From: an uncultured Christensenella sp.
GTDB taxonomy: Bacteria; Bacillota; Clostridia; Christensenellales; DTU072
Reading direction: 5' to 3'
DNA: 12,402 nt
NCBI GenBank assembly: GCA_964450015.1
Contig: CAYVEU010000028.1
Location: forward strand, 4,236-16,637
This document shows, in pieces, positions 556 to 11,051 of this stretch. The translations under genes were made by a program, and so were the position numbers. Numbering within the stretch: the first letter of the stretch is position 1; every line of letters begins with the position of its first letter. The notes under the pieces are model-generated. The model saw only the letters and a program-made list of their open reading frames with translations. It ran no database searches and was not told the DNA's origin.

Positions 556-1929
556 TTATACTCTTTTGCTTAACGAAACGTATTGCTGTTTCTTCGCAAT
601 CCCGACGTAACCGGGGCGGATGATTTTTCCTTTGTTGGCGAGTTCTTCTATACGGTGCGCAGTCCAACCGGACATACGCGCTACGGCAAACATCGGCGTA
701 AACAGTCCGAGCGGCAATCCAAGCATATTGTATACGAACCCCGAATAAAAATCGATATTCGGGCATACGCCTTTATAAATTTTCCGCATGTCGGCAATAA
801 CTTCGGGGGCAAGTCTTTCGATTTTTTCGTAAAGCTCGTATTCTTTGTCGAGATGCTTTTCAACGGCAAGCAGTTTTACGTATTCTTTCAAAATATCCGC
901 TCTCGGGTCGCTTAGAGAATATACTGCGTGTCCCATGCCGTAAATAAGCCCCGACTTATCGAACGCTTCTTTTTTCAGTATCTTAGCCAAATAATCTTTA
1001 AGCGCACCTTCGTCACCGGTAGGAACGTTACGCTTTATATCCTCGAACATTTCCACGACCTTTATATTCGCTCCGCCGTGGCGCGGACCTTTTAACGAGC
1101 CCAAAGACGCGGCGATAACCGAATAGGTATCCGAACCCGAAGAGCTTACGACGTGGGTCGTAAAAGTCGAGTTGTTGCCGCCGCCGTGCTCGGCGTGCAG
1201 GACCAAACAAATATCGAGCAGCTTTGCTTCGAGCGAGCTGTAAACGCTGTCCGCCCGCAACAAGTGCAATATGTTTTCTGCGGTCGAGAGATTGTCGTCG
1301 GATTGGTGAATAATCAAGCTGTTGTTATTGTTGTAATACTCGTTGACTTGATAGCTGTAAACAGCAATCGCAGGCAATTGCGCAATCAGTTGCAAACACT
1401 GCCTCAAAACGTTCGCCATGCTTATATCGTCCGCCTTGTGGTCGTAAGAATACAGTGACAGTACGCTCCTTGCAAGCGAATTCATCATATCGGCAGAAGG
1501 CGCTTTCATAATTATATCCCTAACGAAGCTTTTGGGAATTTTCCTTAAACTTATGAGCAGAGACTTAAAATCTTCAAGCTGTTTTTTATTGGGAAGCGAA
1601 CCGAAAATAAGCAAATAAACGGTCTCCTCAAACCCGAAGCGTTTTTCCTTGACGAAGCCCGCCACCAGTTTTTTTACGTCTATACCGCGGTAGTACAATT
1701 CTCCCTCTATCGGCTTTTTCTCCCCGTCCTTTTCCGAAAAGCTTATAATATCGCTTATCTCGGTAAGTCCGGCGAGCACTCCCGTGCCGTTTATATCCCT
1801 AAGCCCTCTTTTTACGTCGTACTTTTCATAATTTGCCGAATCGATCAAAGTGCTTTGGTATGCAAGCTTGCTTAAAGCCGATATTTGCTCTTTTTGTCCG
1901 GATTCGAGCTTCGATAAAATAAAAGTCAT
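556..1929 (-). CDS. gltA: Citrate synthase
   Basis: 457-aa ORF carrying the citrate synthase signature blocks HAEHGGGNNSTFT, GPRHGGAN, GMGHAVY and NIDFYSG. SD GAGGT lies 9 nt upstream of the ATG at 1927-1929. Confidence 0.92.
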   Translation of the reverse strand: MTFILSKLESGQKEQISALSKLAYQSTLIDSANYEKYDVKRGLRDINGTGVLAGLTEISDIISFSEKDGEKKPIEGELYYRGIDVKKLVAGFVKEKRFGFEETVYLLIFGSLPNKKQLEDFKSLLISLRKIPKSFVRDIIMKAPSADMMNSLARSVLSLYSYDHKADDISMANVLRQCLQLIAQLPAIAVYSYQVNEYYNNNNSLIIHQSDDNLSTAENILHLLRADSVYSSLEAKLLDICLVLHAEHGGGNNSTFTTHVVSSSGSDTYSVIAASLGSLKGPRHGGANIKVVEMFEDIKRNVPTGDEGALKDYLAKILKKEAFDKSGLIYGMGHAVYSLSDPRADILKEYVKLLAVEKHLDKEYELYEKIERLAPEVIADMRKIYKGVCPNIDFYSGFVYNMLGLPLGLFTPMFAVARMSGWTAHRIEELANKGKIIRPGYVGIAKKQQYVSLSKRV

Positions 1930-2106: not shown

Positions 2107-2598
2107 TTAAGTGATTACCACCGAAGCATAGAAATGACTCGCGGTACTCGAAGCGGAACCGTTTAATAAAATCACGAGATAGTAGGTTTCCCCTTTTTTG
2201 AGATAAGCTCTCAACTTTGGCGTCTTGCCGCTATCGCTAATCAAAGTTTTTTTGTCTTTATCCCTGAGCGCAACGGAAACAGCATACGGCGAATTTATAG
2301 TAAAAGTGTAATAACCGTTTGAAGAATCCGCCTTGTAGCTGTAATAGGTTGTCGAACTCGTCAAGCACTTGACGCTGCTGTTGGTGCCGTACTTCAATGC
2401 TCCCGACGTCTTATACGGCGAGCGGCTACTTCCGCTTGAACTTGCGTTGCCTACGCCGATAACTCCCGCTAAGGCGAAAAATACGACAGCCAGCACGATA
2501 GATACAATGAGAATCATCAATCTTTTCGGCGACTTTGCAATTTGTTTAAAAACGTTTTGTCTTAACGTTATAGTCTTTTCTTCCGAAACATCGTTCAT
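2107..2598 (-). CDS. Hypothetical membrane-anchored protein with Ser/Thr/Tyr-rich beta-type ectodomain
   Basis: 163-aa ORF. The N-terminal ~30-aa basic segment is followed by a TM helix IVSIVLAVVFFALAGVIGVG, then NASSSGSSRS... and YYTFTINSPYAVSVAL...GETYYLVILL beta-like repeats. Its ATG overlaps the upstream stop (TAATG at 2596-2600). GGAGAG SD lies 8 nt upstream. Confidence 0.7.
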   Translation of the reverse strand: MNDVSEEKTITLRQNVFKQIAKSPKRLMILIVSIVLAVVFFALAGVIGVGNASSSGSSRSPYKTSGALKYGTNSSVKCLTSSTTYYSYKADSSNGYYTFTINSPYAVSVALRDKDKKTLISDSGKTPKLRAYLKKGETYYLVILLNGSASSTASHFYASVVIT

Positions 2599-3932
2599 TA
2601 TTTACTCTCCTCTATGCTGCTCTCGTTTTCCGCGTCGCCGACGCCGGTCTTTTCGTTCTCGACGAAATAAGCGTCTTCCTTTTCCTCGTCGCCTGTCTCC
2701 TTGCTCTTTTTGTTGAAAATCTTAATTTTATCCCACGCAAAAGCCGCCGTCAAGCCGAAAATCAAACTCGTACACCCTAAAATAATCAATCCTGCTACCA
2801 CCGAAGCTATCATCGTGAAGCACCCTACCAAGATACATAACGTCAACAGTATCAAAAATGCCGACGGACGACGCTTCTTCGGGCTAATCCAAGTGGACTC
2901 GGTTGCCGTCGTTTTCGTCCCCAAACCGCCGAACAACCGCCTTTTGAGCTTTTCATTGACTATGTCCGCTTCGTACTTATCCTGTTCGCCGGTGCGCTTT
3001 AAATATCTGTTCAACGCAAAATCCTTTTCCGCTTCGGTCAACGTCAACGGGAAATTGGGATATTTTTCGTGAATAGCGGCTTTTTCCTCGTAACGTTTTA
3101 ACGCTTGCTCCGCCATTTCGTTTTCAAAGTTCTTTATCCGCTCGGCTTCCGCCAACGCAAAATATTGATTTTCCAGTTTCTCCGTCGCATTGTTGGGGAT
3201 AACTATATTCAAAATGCTGACGTCGGCAACCGACAAGCCGTAACCTAGGCACAATTCTCGCAAGTCTTTTGCCGCTCTTTCGCCCATGCTTTGGTAATAC
3301 TTGGACAAATCGAAAAACGTTGCGTCGTTTTCCTCGATAACTTTAAGTACTACGTTGCGTATGCATTTGTTTATTAAATCGTGTAGCGTGACCACCGCTA
3401 AATTTAAATCTATTTGCGACAAGTCGAGATCAATTTTCTTGACCAATTCCAAAGAGTCGACTATCTTCAATTTTACTTTTGCCGTGGTTTTTAATTTTAT
3501 CGGCAACGCCAATTGTTTGTCAAAGTAGCGTACTATTTCGCCCTCTCTGGTTTCGTAGTTATAAAAAACGCAGATATTTTTATCGTAACTTTTTAACAGC
3601 CATATGGTTTTGTTTTTATCGTATCCTTCTACTTTGGTGAATTTTTCGTAAAGATAAATATTTACCAAATCTTTGTGCAGCTGATTTTCGTTGAGCAATA
3701 AAATATTGCTGTATCTGCAAGCGACCCACTCGCAAAGAGTCTTCCTTTGAAATTCGTCCGCAGGATTTAACTTTCTCGCATAGGCGGTATTGGCGTTCAT
3801 ACATTCGACGGCCGCTCGCCTCTCCGTTTCTTTGGCTAAGTTCAACGACGAAAATTTGATTTTTTCGCTCAATACTTTTTGACAAAGTTCACTCGCCTGA
3901 CGACTCCCGCGCACCTGTCCAACAGTACACAT
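2598..3932 (-). CDS. SPFH/band-7-like domain protein with coiled coil, C-terminal transmembrane hairpin and acidic tail
   Basis: 444-aa ORF. Segment IRNVVLKVIEENDATFFDLSKYYQSMGERAAKDLRELCLGYGLSVADVSILNIVIPNNATEKLENQYFALAEAERIK matches the C-terminal SPFH pattern (RxVIG.., GIxVxxVxIxxIxxP, AExxK). This is followed by an EAE/KRYEEK coiled coil, a ~44-aa hydrophobic segment SAFLILLTLCILVGCFTMIASVVAGLIILGCTSLIFGLTAAFAW, and a D/E-rich tail. SD AGGAGGG lies about 12 nt upstream. The ATG overlaps the upstream stop (TAATG at 3930-3934). Confidence 0.75.
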   Translation of the reverse strand: MCTVGQVRGSRQASELCQKVLSEKIKFSSLNLAKETERRAAVECMNANTAYARKLNPADEFQRKTLCEWVACRYSNILLLNENQLHKDLVNIYLYEKFTKVEGYDKNKTIWLLKSYDKNICVFYNYETREGEIVRYFDKQLALPIKLKTTAKVKLKIVDSLELVKKIDLDLSQIDLNLAVVTLHDLINKCIRNVVLKVIEENDATFFDLSKYYQSMGERAAKDLRELCLGYGLSVADVSILNIVIPNNATEKLENQYFALAEAERIKNFENEMAEQALKRYEEKAAIHEKYPNFPLTLTEAEKDFALNRYLKRTGEQDKYEADIVNEKLKRRLFGGLGTKTTATESTWISPKKRRPSAFLILLTLCILVGCFTMIASVVAGLIILGCTSLIFGLTAAFAWDKIKIFNKKSKETGDEEKEDAYFVENEKTGVGDAENESSIEESK

Positions 3933-4117
3933 TATTTACTTTTCCCTCCTTGTAAATATAAATAGTCGGAACACATTTCGCAAATCGAAGCGTCGGCAGA
4001 ATTTACGTGACCGCATATTTCGCAAATTATGCCCTTGTTATTCGGGATTTCCATATTCAAACTGACTTTTGCTTCCGCTTCGGATTTATTTAAACGTATA
4101 AACTTTTCCGTTCCCAA
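3932..4117 (-). CDS. Small zinc-ribbon protein (CxxC...CxxC), start uncertain (TTG 4117 or ATG 4054)
   Basis: C-terminal CEICGHVNSADASICEMC forms a CxxC-x10-CxxC ribbon. A strong SD GGAGGGAGAG (4130->4121) sits 8 nt before the in-frame TTG at 4117-4115. An alternative ATG at 4054 has a poor SD. The longer tracked ORF start (TTG at 4207) overlaps the predicted -35 box and is unlikely. Confidence 0.55.
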   Translation of the reverse strand: MGTEKFIRLNKSEAEAKVSLNMEIPNNKGIICEICGHVNSADASICEMCSDYLYLQGGKSK

Positions 4118-4177
4118 ATTCTCTCCCTCCTTTATTGTTCGTTTCACTTTCCCATTATACCGGGAAACGACTTTTTT

Positions 4178-4207
4178 ATTATAAAACCGACAAAAAATTA
4201 AAGTCAA
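4178..4207 (-). promoter_or_regulatory. Candidate promoter of the zinc-ribbon/SPFH/membrane cassette (TTGACT-18-TATAAT)
   Basis: Minus-strand -35 TTGACT (4207->4202), 18-nt spacer, -10 TATAAT (4183->4178). A second TATAAT lies at 4159->4154. A ~45-nt leader runs to the GGAGGG SD. Confidence 0.5.
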
Positions 4208-4353: not shown

Positions 4354-6993
4354 TTATTGTTTTTTGTATACCTTGCGCATGATAATTTTACAAAGTTCGA
4401 CGAGCGGTATTATCGCAATCGCCGCGAGTATTGCCGTAAGCCATTGTAAGAACGTTAAGTCTACTATTCCGAAAACGCCGTTAAGTCCGGGGATTGCCGC
4501 CACCCCGACAGTAAGCGCCGCGCCCACGCCGAACGCAACGAACATAAAGCGGTTTTTGAAAAAGCCTTTGCGGAATATACTGCCGTTAAGACTACGCGCG
4601 TTAAAGCAATGGAACAATTGAATAAGACACAGCGTTATAAACGCGAGGCTCTCGCCGACGTCGTGCCCCCAACTGCCGTAAACGCAGCCGAAAAACACCG
4701 CGAGTACGATAACCGTTTGCAAAATGCCTTGATACACTATGTTTATTCCCAAATGCCCCGCAAACAAATTGTCGTCGGATTTTCTCGGCGGGTTGTCCAT
4801 AATGTCGTCGTCGCCGTCTTCCATTCCCAATGCCAGCGCAGGCAGGCTGTCCGTGACGAGATTTATCCACAGTATTTGTATCGGCAATAAAAACACCGCG
4901 TTTTGTCCCGTAATAGAAAACACTATTGTGGATATAAACAAACTAAGCACCTCGCAAATATTCGCGCTCAACAAAAACTGTATAGTCTTTTGCATATTGT
5001 CGAATATCTTGCGCCCCTCTTTTACAGCTTCGACGATGGTTGCGAAATTGTCGTCGGCAAGCACCATGTCCGCCGCGCCTTTCGTCACGTCCGTACCGGT
5101 AATTCCCATGCCTACGCCTATGTCCGCCGCCTTAATACTCGGCGCGTCGTTTACTCCGTCGCCCGTCATCGCGACTATCTTCCCTTTTGCTTTCCACGCC
5201 TTGACTATCCGCACCTTGTGCTCGGGACTTACTCTTGCGTATACGCGGTAATTTTCCACGTTATCTCTCAGCTCGTCGTCGCTCATTTCGCTGAGAAGCG
5301 CGCCCGTGACGACCTGCTTTTCGCTGTCGCAAATTTTAAGCTCTTTCGCAATAGCGTACGCGGTATCCTTGTGGTCGCCCGTAATCATGACCGCCGTAAT
5401 GCCCGCCTTTTTGCACACTTCTACCGCAGCCTTAACTTCCTCTCGCGGCGGGTCTATCATTCCGCTCAAACCCAAAAACACCAAATTGCTTTCATAAACG
5501 CTTCCGTCGTCTTCCTTTTCGGCGTATGCGAGAACTCTCAACGCTTCCGACGCAAACAGAGAATTTTGCTTCAATATTTCCGCTCTGTCTGCGTCCGTCA
5601 TCTCTCTTATCTTCCCGTCGGCAAAAATTTTGTCACACCGTTCCGTTAAAATATCGGGCGCGCCTTTCGTATATACGGTCCGTTTTCCGTCACAGATATT
5701 GACGGTCGTCATAAGCTTACGTTCGCTGTCGAACGGTATCTCGTCTACGCGCGGATTTTCGTTATTCAATTTAACGCTGTCGCCCGTAAGATTGTAGTAT
5801 GCAACGAGCGCGGTTTCCGTCGGGTCGCCCATAAGCATAACGCCGTTCCCGTCGTTTTTCAACACGGTGTCGTTGCAAAGCGTCATACATTTTGCAACTT
5901 CCTTTTCGGCTGCCTCGCCCTCGGCGTACACCTTTTTGACCGTCATTTTATTTAATGTAAGCGTACCCGTCTTGTCTGAGCATATAATTTCAGTCGAGCC
6001 TAGCGTTTCTACGGCGGGAAGCTTTTTTATTATCGCGTTGCGCTTGCTCATTCGCTGTACGCCTATCGCCATAATAATGGTTATTACCGCGGTAAGCCCC
6101 TCGGGAATAGCCGCCACCGCAATGGCAACAGCCGTCATAAACGCGTCTATTACCGCGTCCACCGTCACGCCTATATGAATAGTGCTCAAAACGCTGACTA
6201 TGAAAATGACCGCCGCTATTGCAATAACCGCAATCGAAATGAATTTACCCGTTTTGTTGAGTTTTTTCTGTATGGGCGTTTCTTCGTCGCTGTCCGTTAG
6301 CATATCGGCAATCTTCCCGAGTTCGGTTTTCATTCCCGTTGCGACAACGACGCCTTCGCCCCTGCCGTAGCTGACCACCGAGGACGAAAACGCCATATTC
6401 ACCCTGTCGCCTATGCCCGCATTGTCGTCGCATACGACTTCCGCGTCCTTTTCCACTGGTACCGATTCGCCCGTCAATGCAGACTCCTCTATTTTAAGCG
6501 ACCGCGTTTCGATAAGCCGCAAATCGGCGGGCACGACGTCGCCTGCTTCCAGTAAAACTATATCGCCGACTACCAGCTTGGCGCTCTCTATTTTGATTAT
6601 TTCGCCGCCGCGCCTTACTTTGGCAAACGGTTTGCTCATGTTTTTCAGCGCTTCCAACGCCTGTTCCGCCTTGGACTCTTGCACGACGCCGATTATCGCG
6701 TTAATTATTACAATTGCCAGAATAATGCCGACGTCTATAAATTCGTCATAGGTCTTTTGCACGACCGCAATTACTGCCGTCACAACCGCCGCGCACAACA
6801 AGACGATGACCATTACGTCCTTGAACTGTTCTAAAAACCTTACGATAAGGCTCTTCTTTTTCTCGCCTTTTAATTCGTTTGCGCCGTCTCTTGCCAGCCT
6901 TTGCTCCGCGCTTTGCCGATTTAAACCGTCTTTTCCGCTGTCCGACGCTTTGAAACACTCGGCTAAACCCATCGAATACCATTTCAAGTCCAT
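4354..6993 (-). CDS. Cation-transporting P-type ATPase, type IIA/IIB (Ca2+/Mn2+ efflux, PMCA/SERCA-like)
   Basis: 879-aa ORF with the phosphorylation motif CSDKTGTLTLNKM. The hinge motifs are TGDHKDTA and MTGDGVNDAPSIKAADIGVGMG. The TM4 IPEGL motif is typical of P2 ATPases. About 10 predicted TM segments. SD AGGAG lies 6 nt upstream of the ATG at 6991-6993. Confidence 0.95.
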   Translation of the reverse strand: MDLKWYSMGLAECFKASDSGKDGLNRQSAEQRLARDGANELKGEKKKSLIVRFLEQFKDVMVIVLLCAAVVTAVIAVVQKTYDEFIDVGIILAIVIINAIIGVVQESKAEQALEALKNMSKPFAKVRRGGEIIKIESAKLVVGDIVLLEAGDVVPADLRLIETRSLKIEESALTGESVPVEKDAEVVCDDNAGIGDRVNMAFSSSVVSYGRGEGVVVATGMKTELGKIADMLTDSDEETPIQKKLNKTGKFISIAVIAIAAVIFIVSVLSTIHIGVTVDAVIDAFMTAVAIAVAAIPEGLTAVITIIMAIGVQRMSKRNAIIKKLPAVETLGSTEIICSDKTGTLTLNKMTVKKVYAEGEAAEKEVAKCMTLCNDTVLKNDGNGVMLMGDPTETALVAYYNLTGDSVKLNNENPRVDEIPFDSERKLMTTVNICDGKRTVYTKGAPDILTERCDKIFADGKIREMTDADRAEILKQNSLFASEALRVLAYAEKEDDGSVYESNLVFLGLSGMIDPPREEVKAAVEVCKKAGITAVMITGDHKDTAYAIAKELKICDSEKQVVTGALLSEMSDDELRDNVENYRVYARVSPEHKVRIVKAWKAKGKIVAMTGDGVNDAPSIKAADIGVGMGITGTDVTKGAADMVLADDNFATIVEAVKEGRKIFDNMQKTIQFLLSANICEVLSLFISTIVFSITGQNAVFLLPIQILWINLVTDSLPALALGMEDGDDDIMDNPPRKSDDNLFAGHLGINIVYQGILQTVIVLAVFFGCVYGSWGHDVGESLAFITLCLIQLFHCFNARSLNGSIFRKGFFKNRFMFVAFGVGAALTVGVAAIPGLNGVFGIVDLTFLQWLTAILAAIAIIPLVELCKIIMRKVYKKQ

Positions 6994-7021
6994 TTTTATC
7001 TCCTAATATCTTTATTATTCT

Positions 7022-7165
7022 CAAAAAAATAAGACTCAACGCATAGCAAAAACTATGCGTTGAGTCTTGTCGTTTCCGATAAGCCAAATTAAACCGGAGT
7101 TTAATCAGTGATGTTGACTTTACCGACGTTTCCCCGACGAAAAACGCCGACTACTCCCTCAACGT
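7022..7165 (-). promoter_or_regulatory. Structured 5' leader of the ATPase: candidate ON-type riboswitch or attenuator (possible yybP-ykoY/Mn2+-like) ending in intrinsic terminator 7022-7068
   Basis: Minus-strand leader 5'-UUGAGGGAGUAGUCGGCGUUUUUCGUCGGGGAAACGUCGG...UUAAACUCCGGUUUAA...CGGAAACG ACAAGACUCAACGCAUAG-UUUUUG-CUAUGCGUUGAGUCUU-AUUUUUUUGA. The terminator is a perfect 16-bp stem (7031-7046 / 7053-7068) followed by a U7 tract, 22 nt before the SD. The 5' UUGAG can pair with CUCAA inside the terminator's 5' arm as an anti-terminator P1. The GGGAGUAG and CGUCGGGGAAAC segments resemble conserved yybP-ykoY 5' elements. That resemblance is from memory and unverified. Confidence 0.5.
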
Positions 7166-7169
7166 TTTG

Positions 7170-7198
7170 ATAATATCATTATATTCCCCATCTGTCAA
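7170..7198 (-). promoter_or_regulatory. Candidate promoter for ATPase leader (TTGACA-17-TATTAT)
   Basis: Minus-strand -35 TTGACA (7198->7193), 17-nt spacer, -10 TATTAT (7175->7170). The predicted TSS near 7163 coincides with the start of the GGGAGUAG leader. Confidence 0.5.
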
Positions 7199-7232
7199 TA
7201 AGTTTTCTTAAAAAAATTATGCTCGGTTTACC

Positions 7233-7261
7233 TTGACTTGAAATTCTTATATCTATATAAT
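7233..7261 (+). promoter_or_regulatory. Consensus sigma-A promoter for the decarboxylase gene (TTGACT-17-TATAAT)
   Basis: TTGACT at 7233-7238 and TATAAT at 7256-7261 with an exact 17-nt spacer. Lies about 40 nt upstream of the ATG at 7301 and is divergent from the ATPase promoter. Confidence 0.65.
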
Positions 7262-7300
7262 TATGATAACGACACAATGTTAAAAGGAAACGAATAAATT

Positions 7301-8563
7301 ATGAAAAAACCGTTTATAACTAAGGAAAAAGCCGCTGAGATCGCGGCGGTATACCCCACTCCTTTTCACGTCTACGACGAAAAAGGAATTGTCGACAATG
7401 CAAAAGAGCTTTTCGCTTCTTTCGGTTGGAACAAAGGCTTTAAGGAATATTTTGCCGTAAAAGCTACCCCGAACCCCGCAATTTTGAAGCTTTTGAAATC
7501 CTGCGGCTGCGGCGTAGACTGTTCCAGCCTTACCGAACTTTTAATGGCGGAAGCGTGCGGATTTTCCGGCGACGAAATCATGTTTTCCAGCAACGAAACT
7601 CCCGCTCAGGAATTTGTGCTGGCACGCAAACTGAACGCAATCATCAACTTGGACGATATTACCCATATCGACTTTTTAAAGCAAAACGGCGGAATACCCA
7701 AAAAATTATGTTTGCGCTTCAATCCGGGCGGCGACTTCAAAATCGGCAACCGCATTATGGGCAACCCTGCCGACGCAAAGTACGGTCTTACCCGTCCGCA
7801 AATGTCCGAAGCCGTCAAGCGCTTGCTGAAAGAAGGCGTAGAGGAATTCGGTATTCACGCGTTTTTGGCAAGCAACACTTTGGGCAACGACTACTACCCC
7901 GAGCTTGCCCGTATCCTTTTTGAAACCGTCGCGGAAATAACCGAAGAAACGGGCGCGAAGTTCGTTTTCGTAAATTTGAGCGGCGGCATAGGCGTGCCCT
8001 ACCGCCCCGACCAACCGAAAAACGACGTTAAAGTTATCGCCAAAGGCGTGGAAAAAGCCTATAACGAAGTGCTTGTCGCCCGCGGCATAAAAGACGTTAA
8101 AATATTCACCGAGCTCGGTCGTTATATGCTCGCGCCCTACGGACACCTTGTAACGAGAGCAATCCACGTCAAGCACACCCACAAGGAATATATCGGCGTT
8201 GACGCTTGCGCGGCAAACCTTATGCGCCCCGCAATCTACGGCGCGTATCATCATATAACGGTACTCGGCAAGGAAAACGCGGACTGCGACCGAATCTACG
8301 ACGTAGTCGGCTCGCTGTGCGAAAACAGCGACAAATTCGCGGTGGACAGAGCCCTGCCTCAAATCGATATAGGCGACCTTTTGGCTATCCACGACGCGGG
8401 CGCGCACGGTTTCTCAATGGGCTACAACTATAACGGCAAATTGAGAAGCGCGGAAATATTGCTCCACGCCGACGGCTCTTTCGACTGTATCCGCCGCGCC
8501 GAAACTGTTAAGGACTACTTCGCAACCTTCAACTTTATGGACGAATTTAAAGAATACAGATAA
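7301..8563 (+). CDS. lysA: PLP-dependent fold-III decarboxylase, diaminopimelate decarboxylase (LysA) family
   Basis: 420-aa ORF with the PLP-lysine block FAVKATPNPAILKLL and the glycine-rich PLP phosphate loop NLSGGIGVPY. Also carries GSLCENSD (cf. DAPDC CESGD) and HDAGAHG. SD AAGGA lies upstream. The exact substrate (DAP, carboxynorspermidine or ornithine) is not resolvable by eye. Confidence 0.85.
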   Translation: MKKPFITKEKAAEIAAVYPTPFHVYDEKGIVDNAKELFASFGWNKGFKEYFAVKATPNPAILKLLKSCGCGVDCSSLTELLMAEACGFSGDEIMFSSNETPAQEFVLARKLNAIINLDDITHIDFLKQNGGIPKKLCLRFNPGGDFKIGNRIMGNPADAKYGLTRPQMSEAVKRLLKEGVEEFGIHAFLASNTLGNDYYPELARILFETVAEITEETGAKFVFVNLSGGIGVPYRPDQPKNDVKVIAKGVEKAYNEVLVARGIKDVKIFTELGRYMLAPYGHLVTRAIHVKHTHKEYIGVDACAANLMRPAIYGAYHHITVLGKENADCDRIYDVVGSLCENSDKFAVDRALPQIDIGDLLAIHDAGAHGFSMGYNYNGKLRSAEILLHADGSFDCIRRAETVKDYFATFNFMDEFKEYR

Positions 8564-8936: not shown

Positions 8937-10280
8937 ATGAGTAAAAATATTAGGCTCTCGATTTTTATTATTATTCTCTTCACGTTATTGGCGTTATGCG
9001 CGGCAACGAATTATTCCGATATAGCGTACGCGGCGGACGATAATACGGTAGAACTCGTATTCGTTTTCGACGAAAAGGTCTTAACGGAATTGCTTGTGAC
9101 GGAAGGCACGATCGCTCGCTCGCCCGATCTCGAAGATATTGCCGACGGTATACAAACGGGATATACCGTAGAATGGCGGTTTGCCGATAATAGAAAAGCG
9201 GAATTTCCATACGCCGTCAACGCAGCGGATTCGACCGAGGGCAAAATTTTCTTCTACGGTTCCCTCGTTCCGACAGAACCTGAAATAACGATAACCGTTT
9301 GCGCAGGAACCGACGAAACGACTTTTTCATACGCGTTCGGCACCGAACCCGCCTTGCCCGAGAAAGTTTTCGGCTTTACGGTAAGCGACTGGTACTTGGA
9401 CGACGATTACGGTAAAAAGTATACGCCGAAAATAATCGAAACGCCGTTTACACTCTACCCGCTTTTTACCGACAGGAAAATTACCGTCACGGTAGACGGC
9501 GAGGAAACCGAAGTGGATTTCGGCTCTAAGCTTCCGCCAAAAGCGGACACCGCTACGCACAAATTTGTAGGCTACTTGCAAAACGGGCTTCCTTTTAACG
9601 GAAGAATTTTATCACCTACTGCTTTAACTGCCGATTTCGAAAGAGTTAAATTTTGCGTGACCGTCGTAAAAGACGATTCGACAAAATTGTATTTTACCGT
9701 CGGCGAAGCGATAGAAAAGGACGCATTGGCAAGCTACGGCAATAAATTTACCTTGGACGCCGCAGGCGAAAACGCAGTAGCGTTTCCATTCACTCCCGAA
9801 GACGACGTAAATATCTACGCGTTTGACGAAACAACGGCCGTACCGGAAACGCCGACTACGCAAACCTTTGCGATAACCGTAATTTCCGAACACGCCGAAT
9901 TGATTGTAGCGTCCCGTTCGGAAGCCGGAAAAATCATCTCGTTTCGCGTCGTTTTCGTGGAAAGCGGTTTTAAAATAAATTCCCTGACAATTTCGTCCGA
10001 CGGTGCTTCCGTGCCCATGATTTTCGACAATACGACAGGCAGATTTATAATGCCGGAAGGCGACGTAACGATAACGATTACGTTTACCGACTCCGACGCA
10101 AATAATTATACGAACGCCAAGATAAAATTGACGACGAAAGAAATAATAGCCATATCCGTGACGGGCTCTGCCCTGCTGATTGCGGGCGTAACGATTTTAA
10201 TTATCAATATCAAAAAGAATAAAGATAAGAAGAAAACGGAAAAGAAACCGAGCGACGCTAACGGCTCGGCTTCAACGTAA
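8937..10280 (+). CDS. Secreted acidic Thr/Asp/Glu-rich surface protein with N-terminal signal peptide and C-terminal TM anchor plus Lys-rich cytoplasmic tail
   Basis: 447-aa ORF. The signal peptide is MSKNIRLSIFIIILFTLLALCAATNYSDIAYA|ADD. The ectodomain is long and beta-rich. The C-terminus is IIAISVTGSALLIAGVTILIINI followed by KKNKDKKKTEKK. No LPXTG or choline-binding repeats. Strong SD. Confidence 0.8.
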   Translation: MSKNIRLSIFIIILFTLLALCAATNYSDIAYAADDNTVELVFVFDEKVLTELLVTEGTIARSPDLEDIADGIQTGYTVEWRFADNRKAEFPYAVNAADSTEGKIFFYGSLVPTEPEITITVCAGTDETTFSYAFGTEPALPEKVFGFTVSDWYLDDDYGKKYTPKIIETPFTLYPLFTDRKITVTVDGEETEVDFGSKLPPKADTATHKFVGYLQNGLPFNGRILSPTALTADFERVKFCVTVVKDDSTKLYFTVGEAIEKDALASYGNKFTLDAAGENAVAFPFTPEDDVNIYAFDETTAVPETPTTQTFAITVISEHAELIVASRSEAGKIISFRVVFVESGFKINSLTISSDGASVPMIFDNTTGRFIMPEGDVTITITFTDSDANNYTNAKIKLTTKEIIAISVTGSALLIAGVTILIINIKKNKDKKKTEKKPSDANGSAST

Positions 10281-10346: not shown

Positions 10347-11051
10347 TTATTTATCCGCTTCTTCCGAAGACGCGTTCTCGCAGTTTTTATCTGCTCTCAT
10401 TTTCGATTTTTCGCTCAAAGCAAGCAATTGATAAGCTCTCACGAACAGTTCGCTCGTGTCGGAAATGTCTTTGCTGTTATCTACGATAGCTTTCACGACG
10501 TCCTTTTCAAAATTTTCGTTAGCTATTATTACGAACTTAAAATTTAGACCCTTTTCTTTGAAAAATTGGTTAAGATGTTTAATGGGTTGTGCTAAACTAC
10601 TAAATAGCTCGTTATTGATTTTCGGCGTAGCAAAGACAATTTCCGCAGTCCTTGCATTTAAGTAACCGTATATGCTTAGTGCTGTGCGTATATATTTCCC
10701 AATTACTTTACAAATAGTTTTCTTCTTTGAAGCATAGTTTAAACCGCCGGCGTGAAACGCCACGTCAACGGCATAAAACGTGGGTTCGCCGTCTCCGAAC
10801 TCAACACCCAACAGGTCGATTTCTCCCTGTTTGACTACTTGGCTCAGCGAACTGTTACCGAAAAGCTTGTAATCGTATTTTTTTTCGAAATACCCGTGCA
10901 AATCCTTAAATATCTCTTCGCTTACGCATTTCTTCTCATCGGACAAAACCGCCCATTGCCCCGAAACTTTCCAATTCGTGTGCACCAGCCTACATTTCTT
11001 TACGTGTAAAAGCCAAGAATAAAGAAGGGATTCCGCTATTTCTATTTTCAT
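10347..11051 (-). CDS. Hypothetical protein (234 aa), possibly nuclease-fold; co-oriented and likely co-transcribed with rarA
   Basis: ORF with SD AAGGAG 7 nt upstream of the ATG at 11049-11051 and only a 50-nt gap from the rarA stop. No recognisable catalytic signature. An E(6)...EIDLLGVE...VDVAF pattern is vaguely PD-(D/E)xK-like, and the tail is charged. Confidence 0.65.
   Translation of the reverse strand: MKIEIAESLLYSWLLHVKKCRLVHTNWKVSGQWAVLSDEKKCVSEEIFKDLHGYFEKKYDYKLFGNSSLSQVVKQGEIDLLGVEFGDGEPTFYAVDVAFHAGGLNYASKKKTICKVIGKYIRTALSIYGYLNARTAEIVFATPKINNELFSSLAQPIKHLNQFFKEKGLNFKFVIIANENFEKDVVKAIVDNSKDISDTSELFVRAYQLLALSEKSKMRADKNCENASSEEADK

Follow-up and report, generated by a model that had tools for sequence, protein, structure and literature searches.

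What controls the gene for a type-II P-type ATPase in the 12,402-nucleotide stretch of DNA from an uncultured Christensenella sp. that was analysed here (contig CAYVEU010000028.1; the window, to whose positions all coordinates refer)? The gene lies on the minus strand behind a structured leader that contains an intrinsic terminator, and an initial annotation of the sequence had proposed that this leader is an ON-riboswitch of the yybP-ykoY Mn2+ type, possibly a divergent or novel variant, placed before a Ca2+/Mn2+ pump. The first part of the proposal is supported by the family invariants, by covariation, by a covariance model of homologous leaders and by a helical strand that aptamer and terminator share. 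The leader is very probably a riboswitch of the yybP-ykoY (Mn2+) class, built as a three-way junction without helix P4; it would act in transcription as an ON switch, and its target would be a monocistronic gene for a type-II P-type cation-efflux ATPase. The second part found no support, the leader being an ordinary member of a known manganese-sensing family and not a new kind of element; it is a regular representative of the P4-less subtype described for Streptococcus pneumoniae mgtA (PMC6649816). Direct support exists for the sequence and its gene context, for the covarying fold with the family invariants, and for the mutually exclusive pairing and its conservation.

The leader, which reads ...CGUUGAGGGAGUAG... 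on the minus strand, folds far better than its dinucleotide shuffles (z = -6.95; none of 200 shuffles was equally good). When the RNA from 7164 to 7058 is folded alone, its minimum-free-energy (MFE) structure in ViennaRNA is a three-way junction of -34.2 kcal/mol, whose helices and loops are listed in Table 1. The L1 block GGGAGUAG (7158-7151), which has AAGAC as its pairing partner, agrees with the consensus UGGGGAGUAGC of the Rfam yybP-ykoY family RF00080, and its residues G7157, G7156 and A7155 correspond to G8, G9 and A10 of the Lactococcus lactis metal site (residue roles follow PMC6649816). On the opposite strand, AAGA-C (7068-7064) sets AGA immediately before the 3' strand of P1.1. In L3, the residues equivalent to C40 and A41, which contact the metal, are C7113 and A7112; it is the N7 of A41 that touches Mn2+ (PMC6649816). 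These columns were not among the selection criteria, and in the alignment of homologous leaders described below the first is C in 50 of the 52 leaders and the second A in all of them. Beside L3, the P3.1 pair C7116-G7085 (C in 52/52, G in 51/51) stands where the family has the receptor of a cross-helix A-minor contact (PMC6649816), a role predicted for it here. All family invariants outside the blocks used for selection are found in the window, namely the C-G receptor pair, the C-A of L3 and the GG of UGG. The initial annotation had seen no obvious match to yybP-ykoY in the 3' half of the leader. This is contradicted by GUCAACAU (L3), UGGC and AAGAC, all of which are present, and the RF00080 consensus blocks UGGGGAGUAGC, GUCAACAUAC and UGGC have GAGGGAGUAGU, GUCAACAUCAC and UGGC as their counterparts in the window.

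The small hairpins that had been picked out by eye fit this fold unevenly. UUAAAC-UCCG-GUUUAA forms the tip of P3.2. CGGCG-UUUUU-CGUCG is probably not functional: the 9-bp P2 occupies its place, fits together with P1.2, and has a counterpart in a closely related locus (L083), where a long P2 hairpin of different sequence stands at the same place. CG-GAAA-CG (7078-7071) is probably not functional either, and it was also rejected as a vestigial P4, since homologues carry unstructured UUAAA or UGAAA at this point and its 3' CG belongs to, and is needed for, the covarying helix P1.2. The place of P4 is instead taken by seven nucleotides (UCGGAAA) between P3.1 and P1.2, a layout common to 37 homologous leaders.

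Homologues of the ATPase provided the comparative evidence. A scan of the genome collection returned 80 loci encoding proteins 49-56% identical to it, mostly from Clostridia metagenome-assembled genomes (MAGs) and Enterococcus, and in 48 of these 80 a motif-plus-pairing scan identified a like leader immediately before the ATPase gene, its only other match being a stray one. A leader qualified if it had G[GA]AGUA[GA], AGAC and a P1.1 of 4 bp or more; selection made no use of the nucleotides of L3, of the receptor pair or of helices P1.2, P2, P3.1 and P3.2. As in the window, the P4 hairpin is missing from 37 of the homologous leaders; about 11 have it. The window and the 37 P4-less leaders were aligned with plain MAFFT, and a hand-drawn five-helix structure was scored on this alignment by pair counts. 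Of its cells 83.1% pair, against 30-41% in slid controls, and its covariation score of 0.509 compares with at most 0.166 for slid structures and was reached by none of 500 shuffles. The model-fitted alignment gave 88.7% and 0.649, respectively. Over both alignments 83-89% of cells are paired (27-42% when slid), and 23-25 of the 27 pairs change on both sides; in P1.2 the paired fraction is 95-97%, with 4/4 pairs changing on both sides. Conservation and covariation of the leader in related genomes, which had been asked for as a check, were thus found. RNAalifold, run independently on the model-fitted alignment, recovered P1.1, P1.2, P2 and P3.2; on the raw MAFFT alignment, where the variable hairpins are misaligned, it returned only P1.2 and a spurious GAGU/ACUC pairing.

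The 37 P4-less leaders, without the window, served to build a covariance model (R1). It matches the window exactly at 7164..7058, end to end (50.3 bits, E = 7.7e-11), and because the window had no part in the model, a match of this strength is not due to chance. R1 also matches the validated Escherichia coli mntP riboswitch (L081, 465-573; 25.8 bits, E = 7e-5), at the same place that RF00080 matches. Over 100 sources (701 kb of homologous loci) it returned 52 matches, all on the coding strand and upstream of an ATPase homologue, and these include four-way-junction leaders of homologous ATPases. The nearest relatives are two metagenomic loci, L083 and L082, which are 75% and 68% identical to the window over the N-terminal 150 amino acids (aa) of the ATPase. 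Both keep the TTGACA/extended -10 promoter, the aptamer and the overlapping terminator; their P1.2 and P2 sequences differ from those of the window, and they show compensating changes, for example CAACGCAUAG/CUAUGCGUUG versus CAAUGCA/UGCAUUG in the terminator.

The terminator is where the aptamer meets gene expression. Its stem consists of 16 Watson-Crick pairs and one U-G, so that the perfect-stem hairpin with U7 described initially is present, with 17 pairs and not the 16 originally counted. The first 11 nucleotides of its 5' arm (AAGACUCAACG, 7068-7058) are at the same time the 3' strand of L1 and the 3' strand of P1.1. Since this segment is common to aptamer and terminator, the two folds are mutually exclusive, and the complementarity first noticed between UUGAG (7162-7158) and CUCAA (7064-7060) in the terminator 5' arm was borne out. 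In the full leader, the terminator together with P2 and P3 reaches -41.3 kcal/mol versus -25.3 kcal/mol for the aptamer form, the terminator hairpin by itself amounting to -27.8 kcal/mol; the terminator form is favoured and the default state is OFF. Automatic detection placed the beginning of a terminator within the AGAC/P1.1 3' strand in at least 41 of 50 homologous leaders, and the overlap is visible by eye in several leaders beyond these. The Shine-Dalgarno sequence is not sequestered, which makes the control transcriptional.

Characterised relatives are the basis on which three things are predicted: that a metal is bound, that it is Mn2+, and which way regulation runs. By analogy with them the switch may be pictured as follows. 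Transcription would start near 7163, and the nascent RNA would form two legs, one composed of P1.1, L1, P1.2 and P2 and the other of P3.1, L3 and P3.2. An abundant divalent ion, most likely Mn2+ to judge by these relatives, would lodge between L1 (GGAGUA/AAGA) and L3 (AACAUCAC), binding by way of the C7113-A7112 pair; this would dock the legs against each other and stabilise the switch helix P1.1. With AAGACUCAACG held in the aptamer, the 17-bp terminator could not nucleate, transcription would read through and the pump would be made. Without the ion, the same 11 nucleotides would go into the terminator hairpin, whose stability is far greater, and transcription would stop at U7 (7029-7023).

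The proposed promoter TTGACA-17-TATTAT and its start near 7163 were confirmed: 11 of 12 consensus positions are matched, an extended -10 TG is present at 7178-7177, and the predicted start falls at the base of P1.1, the first helix of the leader. The open reading frame (ORF) of the ATPase carries the complete type-II P-type ATPase domain set (Pfam), and its top NCBIfam models are Ca2+-ATPases of the PMR1, SERCA and PMCA types. Because a terminator-like hairpin follows the ORF, the ATPase unit is probably monocistronic, and the riboswitch would control a single gene. The gene upstream, lysA (7301-8563, plus strand), is divergently oriented. The possibility that the terminator at 7068-7023 marks the end of the upstream gene was ruled out, lysA lying on the other strand, and the leader hairpin is therefore an attenuator within the leader and not the end of another gene. 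No operator-like palindrome was found in the lysA-ATPase intergenic region.

Table 1. Features of the window, with the evidence or remark attached to each (coordinates are given in the direction of reading for elements of the ATPase unit).
Feature	Coordinates	Strand	Evidence or remark
Sigma-70-type promoter	7198-7170	minus	-35 TTGACA 7198-7193, 17-nt spacer, -10 TATTAT 7175-7170
yybP-ykoY-type aptamer, P4-less three-way-junction subtype	7164-7058	minus	covariance-model match and MFE fold
P1.1 switch helix	7164-7158 (CGUUGAG) with 7064-7058 (CUCAACG)	minus	sequence; helix 1 covariation
L1 5' strand GGAGUA	7157-7152	minus	invariant in 51/51 aligned leaders
P1.2	GUCG 7151-7148 with CGAC 7072-7069	minus	helix 2 covariation
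P2 hairpin, 9 bp, loop GUCG	7147-7139 with 7134-7126	minus	covariance model and MFE
P3.1	UAAAGUC 7122-7116 with GGCUUA 7085-7080, A7121 unpaired	minus	covariation; column counts
L3 AACAUCAC	7115-7108	minus	column counts; RF00080 consensus GUCAACAUAC
P3.2 hairpin, 8 bp, loop UCCG	7106-7099 with 7094-7087	minus	MFE; helix 6 covariation
Junction UCGGAAA, single-stranded, in the place of P4	7079-7073	minus	alignment columns 178-182
L1 3' strand AAGA	7068-7065	minus	AGA then C in 52/52 leaders (partly by selection)
Intrinsic terminator, 17-bp stem, loop UUUU, then A + U7	7068-7052 with 7047-7031; tail 7030-7023	minus	
Shine-Dalgarno AGGAG	7004-7000	minus	read from sequence; outside terminator pairing
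879-aa type-II (Ca2+/Mn2+-type) P-type ATPase gene	6993-4354	minus	ATG at 6993
Terminator-like hairpin and U tract	4323-4293	minus	30 nt past ATPase stop codon
91-aa ORF	3932-4207	minus	no Pfam or NCBIfam match
444-aa ORF, SPFH/Band-7 domain	2598-3932	minus	
163-aa ORF	2107-2598	minus	no Pfam or NCBIfam match
447-aa ORF	8937-10280	plus	no Pfam or NCBIfam match
234-aa ORF	10347-11051	minus	weak partial match to antiphage GapS6b family, E = 6e-4

Several observations weigh against the assignment to the yybP-ykoY class or against Mn2+ as its signal. Rfam 15, applied to the whole window at gathering thresholds, gave no match, and RF00080 gave none at E <= 10 on 6950-7320. That GGAGUA and AGAC are invariant and that P1.1 pairs is in part built in, the leaders having been selected on these features. 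The junction of the window is GGAAA and not the UNAAA reported to be invariant in streptococci. Finally, both the closest solved relative of the pump and the in vitro behaviour of a related aptamer point to Ca2+, as considered below. The RF00080 scan was among the tests named for refuting the riboswitch proposal. The window had no match, but the validated E. coli mntP control (L081, 462-558), with 41.6 bits, likewise fell below the gathering threshold of 45, and canonical four-way leaders of homologous ATPases obtained at most 16 bits or were missed. In all, RF00080 overlooks nearly every Mn-riboswitch-like leader of Clostridia and Enterococcus ATPase genes, whether of the four-way or the three-way type (L012, L024, L025, L035, L041 and L068, and 18 related loci). 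The negative result is consequently uninformative here, and its interpretation as the sign of a divergent element was dropped once the mntP positive control had failed. The printed RF00080 model has 177 positions, no P1.1 pairing, no AGAC strand and a long insertion in P4. On the same stretch, searches with other Rfam families (M-box, NiCo, T-box and others) at E <= 10 over 6950-7320 produced only chance-level microRNA and small RNA (sRNA) matches, which arise from the terminator hairpin.

If the leader belonged to a riboswitch class of its own, with only the 5' block resembling yybP-ykoY, one would understand why RF00080 matched neither the window nor any of 18 related loci (0/18), why helix P4 is absent and why the junction reads GGAAA. 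We regard this as extremely improbable, given that the L1, L3 and receptor invariants are all present, that R1 finds E. coli mntP as well as four-way-junction ATPase leaders, that RF00080 puts its own validated member below threshold, and that loss of P4 has already been documented within the family (PMC6649816). As to the junction, GGAAA occupies the position of the S. pneumoniae UNAAA. At its first position 36 leaders of the 52-leader alignment have U and 8 have G, and the closest relatives have GUAAU and UUUGU; on these alignment columns the UNAAA motif is not invariant outside streptococci. It is also very unlikely that the leader is a ligand-independent attenuator, or that its terminated form is a stable transcript acting as an sRNA. 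The terminator is indeed very strong, so that a transcript of about 140 nucleotides is expected to accumulate, and Rfam lists related leaders under an sRNA family, SSRC10 (RF02617, Streptococcus sRNA 10), with which the ATPase leader of Enterococcus ureasiticus (L003, 2744-2864) scores 39.7 bits, below the threshold of 56. The window, however, has no RF02617 match at E <= 10, and the element always lies directly upstream of an ATPase gene. Furthermore, conservation is concentrated in the metal-binding loops while the helices covary as their sequence drifts, constraints that neither an attenuator nor an sRNA needs.

The identity of the signal is a separate matter within the same fold and family. 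The physiological signal might be Ca2+, or Ca2+ together with Mn2+, the gene product then being a Ca2+-efflux pump induced when cytoplasmic Ca2+ rises; we hold this to be unlikely. Against it, to our knowledge, every characterised yybP-ykoY member responds to Mn2+. The window also keeps A7112, the equivalent of A41 with its N7 soft-metal contact. In its favour, among solved proteins the pump is nearest to Listeria LMCA1, a Ca2+-ATPase (full-length match, 694 bits), and the NCBIfam cut-off is passed for one Ca2+-ATPase model only, TIGR01517. The S. pneumoniae study (PMC6649816) moreover gives the mgtA aptamer a higher in vitro affinity for Ca2+ than for Mn2+, although in the same study Mn2+ was far better than Ca2+ at activating read-through, both in vitro and in vivo. 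Mn2+ is the most likely physiological ion; a Ca2+ or dual response is the less probable one that the LMCA1-like pump and the tighter Ca2+ binding of the S. pneumoniae aptamer suggest. We give little credence to the further notion that clostridial P4-less leaders lying before LMCA1-like pumps, with junctions that depart from UNAAA, are tuned to Ca2+ or to a mixture of Ca2+ and Mn2+; if true, they would form, within the yybP-ykoY fold, a subgroup of riboswitches that naturally respond to Ca2+.

A Mn2+-responsive switch of the yybP-ykoY class, the reading we favour, has its closest described counterpart in S. pneumoniae mgtA (caxP; Martin et al. 2019), where a canonical yybP-ykoY aptamer forms a three-way junction with P4 replaced by UNAAA, a terminator follows the aptamer, the gene encodes a PII-type ATPase and read-through is activated by Mn2+ (PMC6649816). 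The window shares with it the three-way junction without P4, the C-A pair of L3, the C-G receptor pair, an L1 in which GGGAGUA is paired with AGA, a terminator overlapping the 3' end of the aptamer, a PII-type Ca2+/Mn2+ ATPase and the predicted ON-switch logic. The two differ in detail only: the window has GGAAA at the junction where streptococci have UNAAA, an L3 of the AACAU type, as in E. coli mntP, where S. pneumoniae has GUCAAUAC, and a longer P2 of 9 bp. In L. lactis yoaB, a riboswitch with a crystal structure, P1.1 is the switch helix, and it is established that read-through depends on its stabilisation (PMC11087558). Here the likeness extends to the predicted transcriptional ON control, the P1.1 3' strand common to aptamer and terminator, the P-type ATPase target, the L1 sequence and the C40-A41 pair; yoaB, however, has a four-way junction with P4 stacked on P3, and the window has no P4. 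E. coli mntP has the same L1 (GGGGAGUAG) and L3 (GUCAACAUAC) blocks as the window and differs from it in its four-way junction and in its target, an MntP-family exporter and not a P-type ATPase; its control is translational rather than terminator-based (PMC12153347). Three-way junctions also occur in E. coli alx, there without P2 (PMC12153347). Within Clostridia, a Mn2+ riboswitch before a cation-translocating P-type ATPase has been predicted, and only predicted, for Clostridioides difficile CD2503 (review PMC11477304), a likeness to the window in the described arrangement.

Examples of this arrangement were characterised before, in Lactococcus and Streptococcus, and one has been predicted in C. 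difficile; the window adds little new biology: one more P-type cation pump controlled by a Mn riboswitch, in a sparsely sampled Clostridia-like genome. Its wider bearing concerns annotation. Pipelines that rely on the RF00080 of Rfam 15 leave such leaders unannotated or call them orphan structures, and if RF00080 were re-seeded with P1.1, the AGAC strand and the P4-less layout, this group of leaders would be recovered. The consensus of RF02617 bears GGGAGUAG, GUCAAUAC and GAGAC blocks and a terminator. To go by these blocks, the RF02617 'sRNA' family appears to be the P4-less Mn2+ riboswitch of streptococci, catalogued as an sRNA.

In roughly half of the homologous loci the R1 search detected no aptamer upstream of the ATPase gene; L001, which encodes the most similar ATPase in the genome collection (56% identical), is among them. 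Riboswitch control of this pump family is therefore patchy. This best relative comes from a MAG of Christensenellaceae or Clostridia. When clustered at 90%, the window's ATPase and its citrate synthase are both singletons.

On the other side of the intergenic region, lysA has a near-consensus promoter of its own, TTGACT-17-TATAAT (7233-7261, plus strand), which stands back to back with that of the ATPase; the -35 boxes of the two are about 35 nucleotides apart (7193-7238). The lysA leader measures only about 35 nucleotides and is without a lysine riboswitch. Downstream of the ATPase terminator, three ORFs on the minus strand (2107-4207) have overlapping stop and start codons and form an apparent operon. 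Beyond them, between the citrate synthase gene (556-1929, minus strand) and the ORF at 2107-2598 (minus strand), lies what resembles a bidirectional terminator: a GC-rich hairpin of 13 bp at 2051-2079 on both strands, with runs of A and T on either side. This hairpin accounts for the weak Rfam 'leader' and sRNA matches at 1986-2201.

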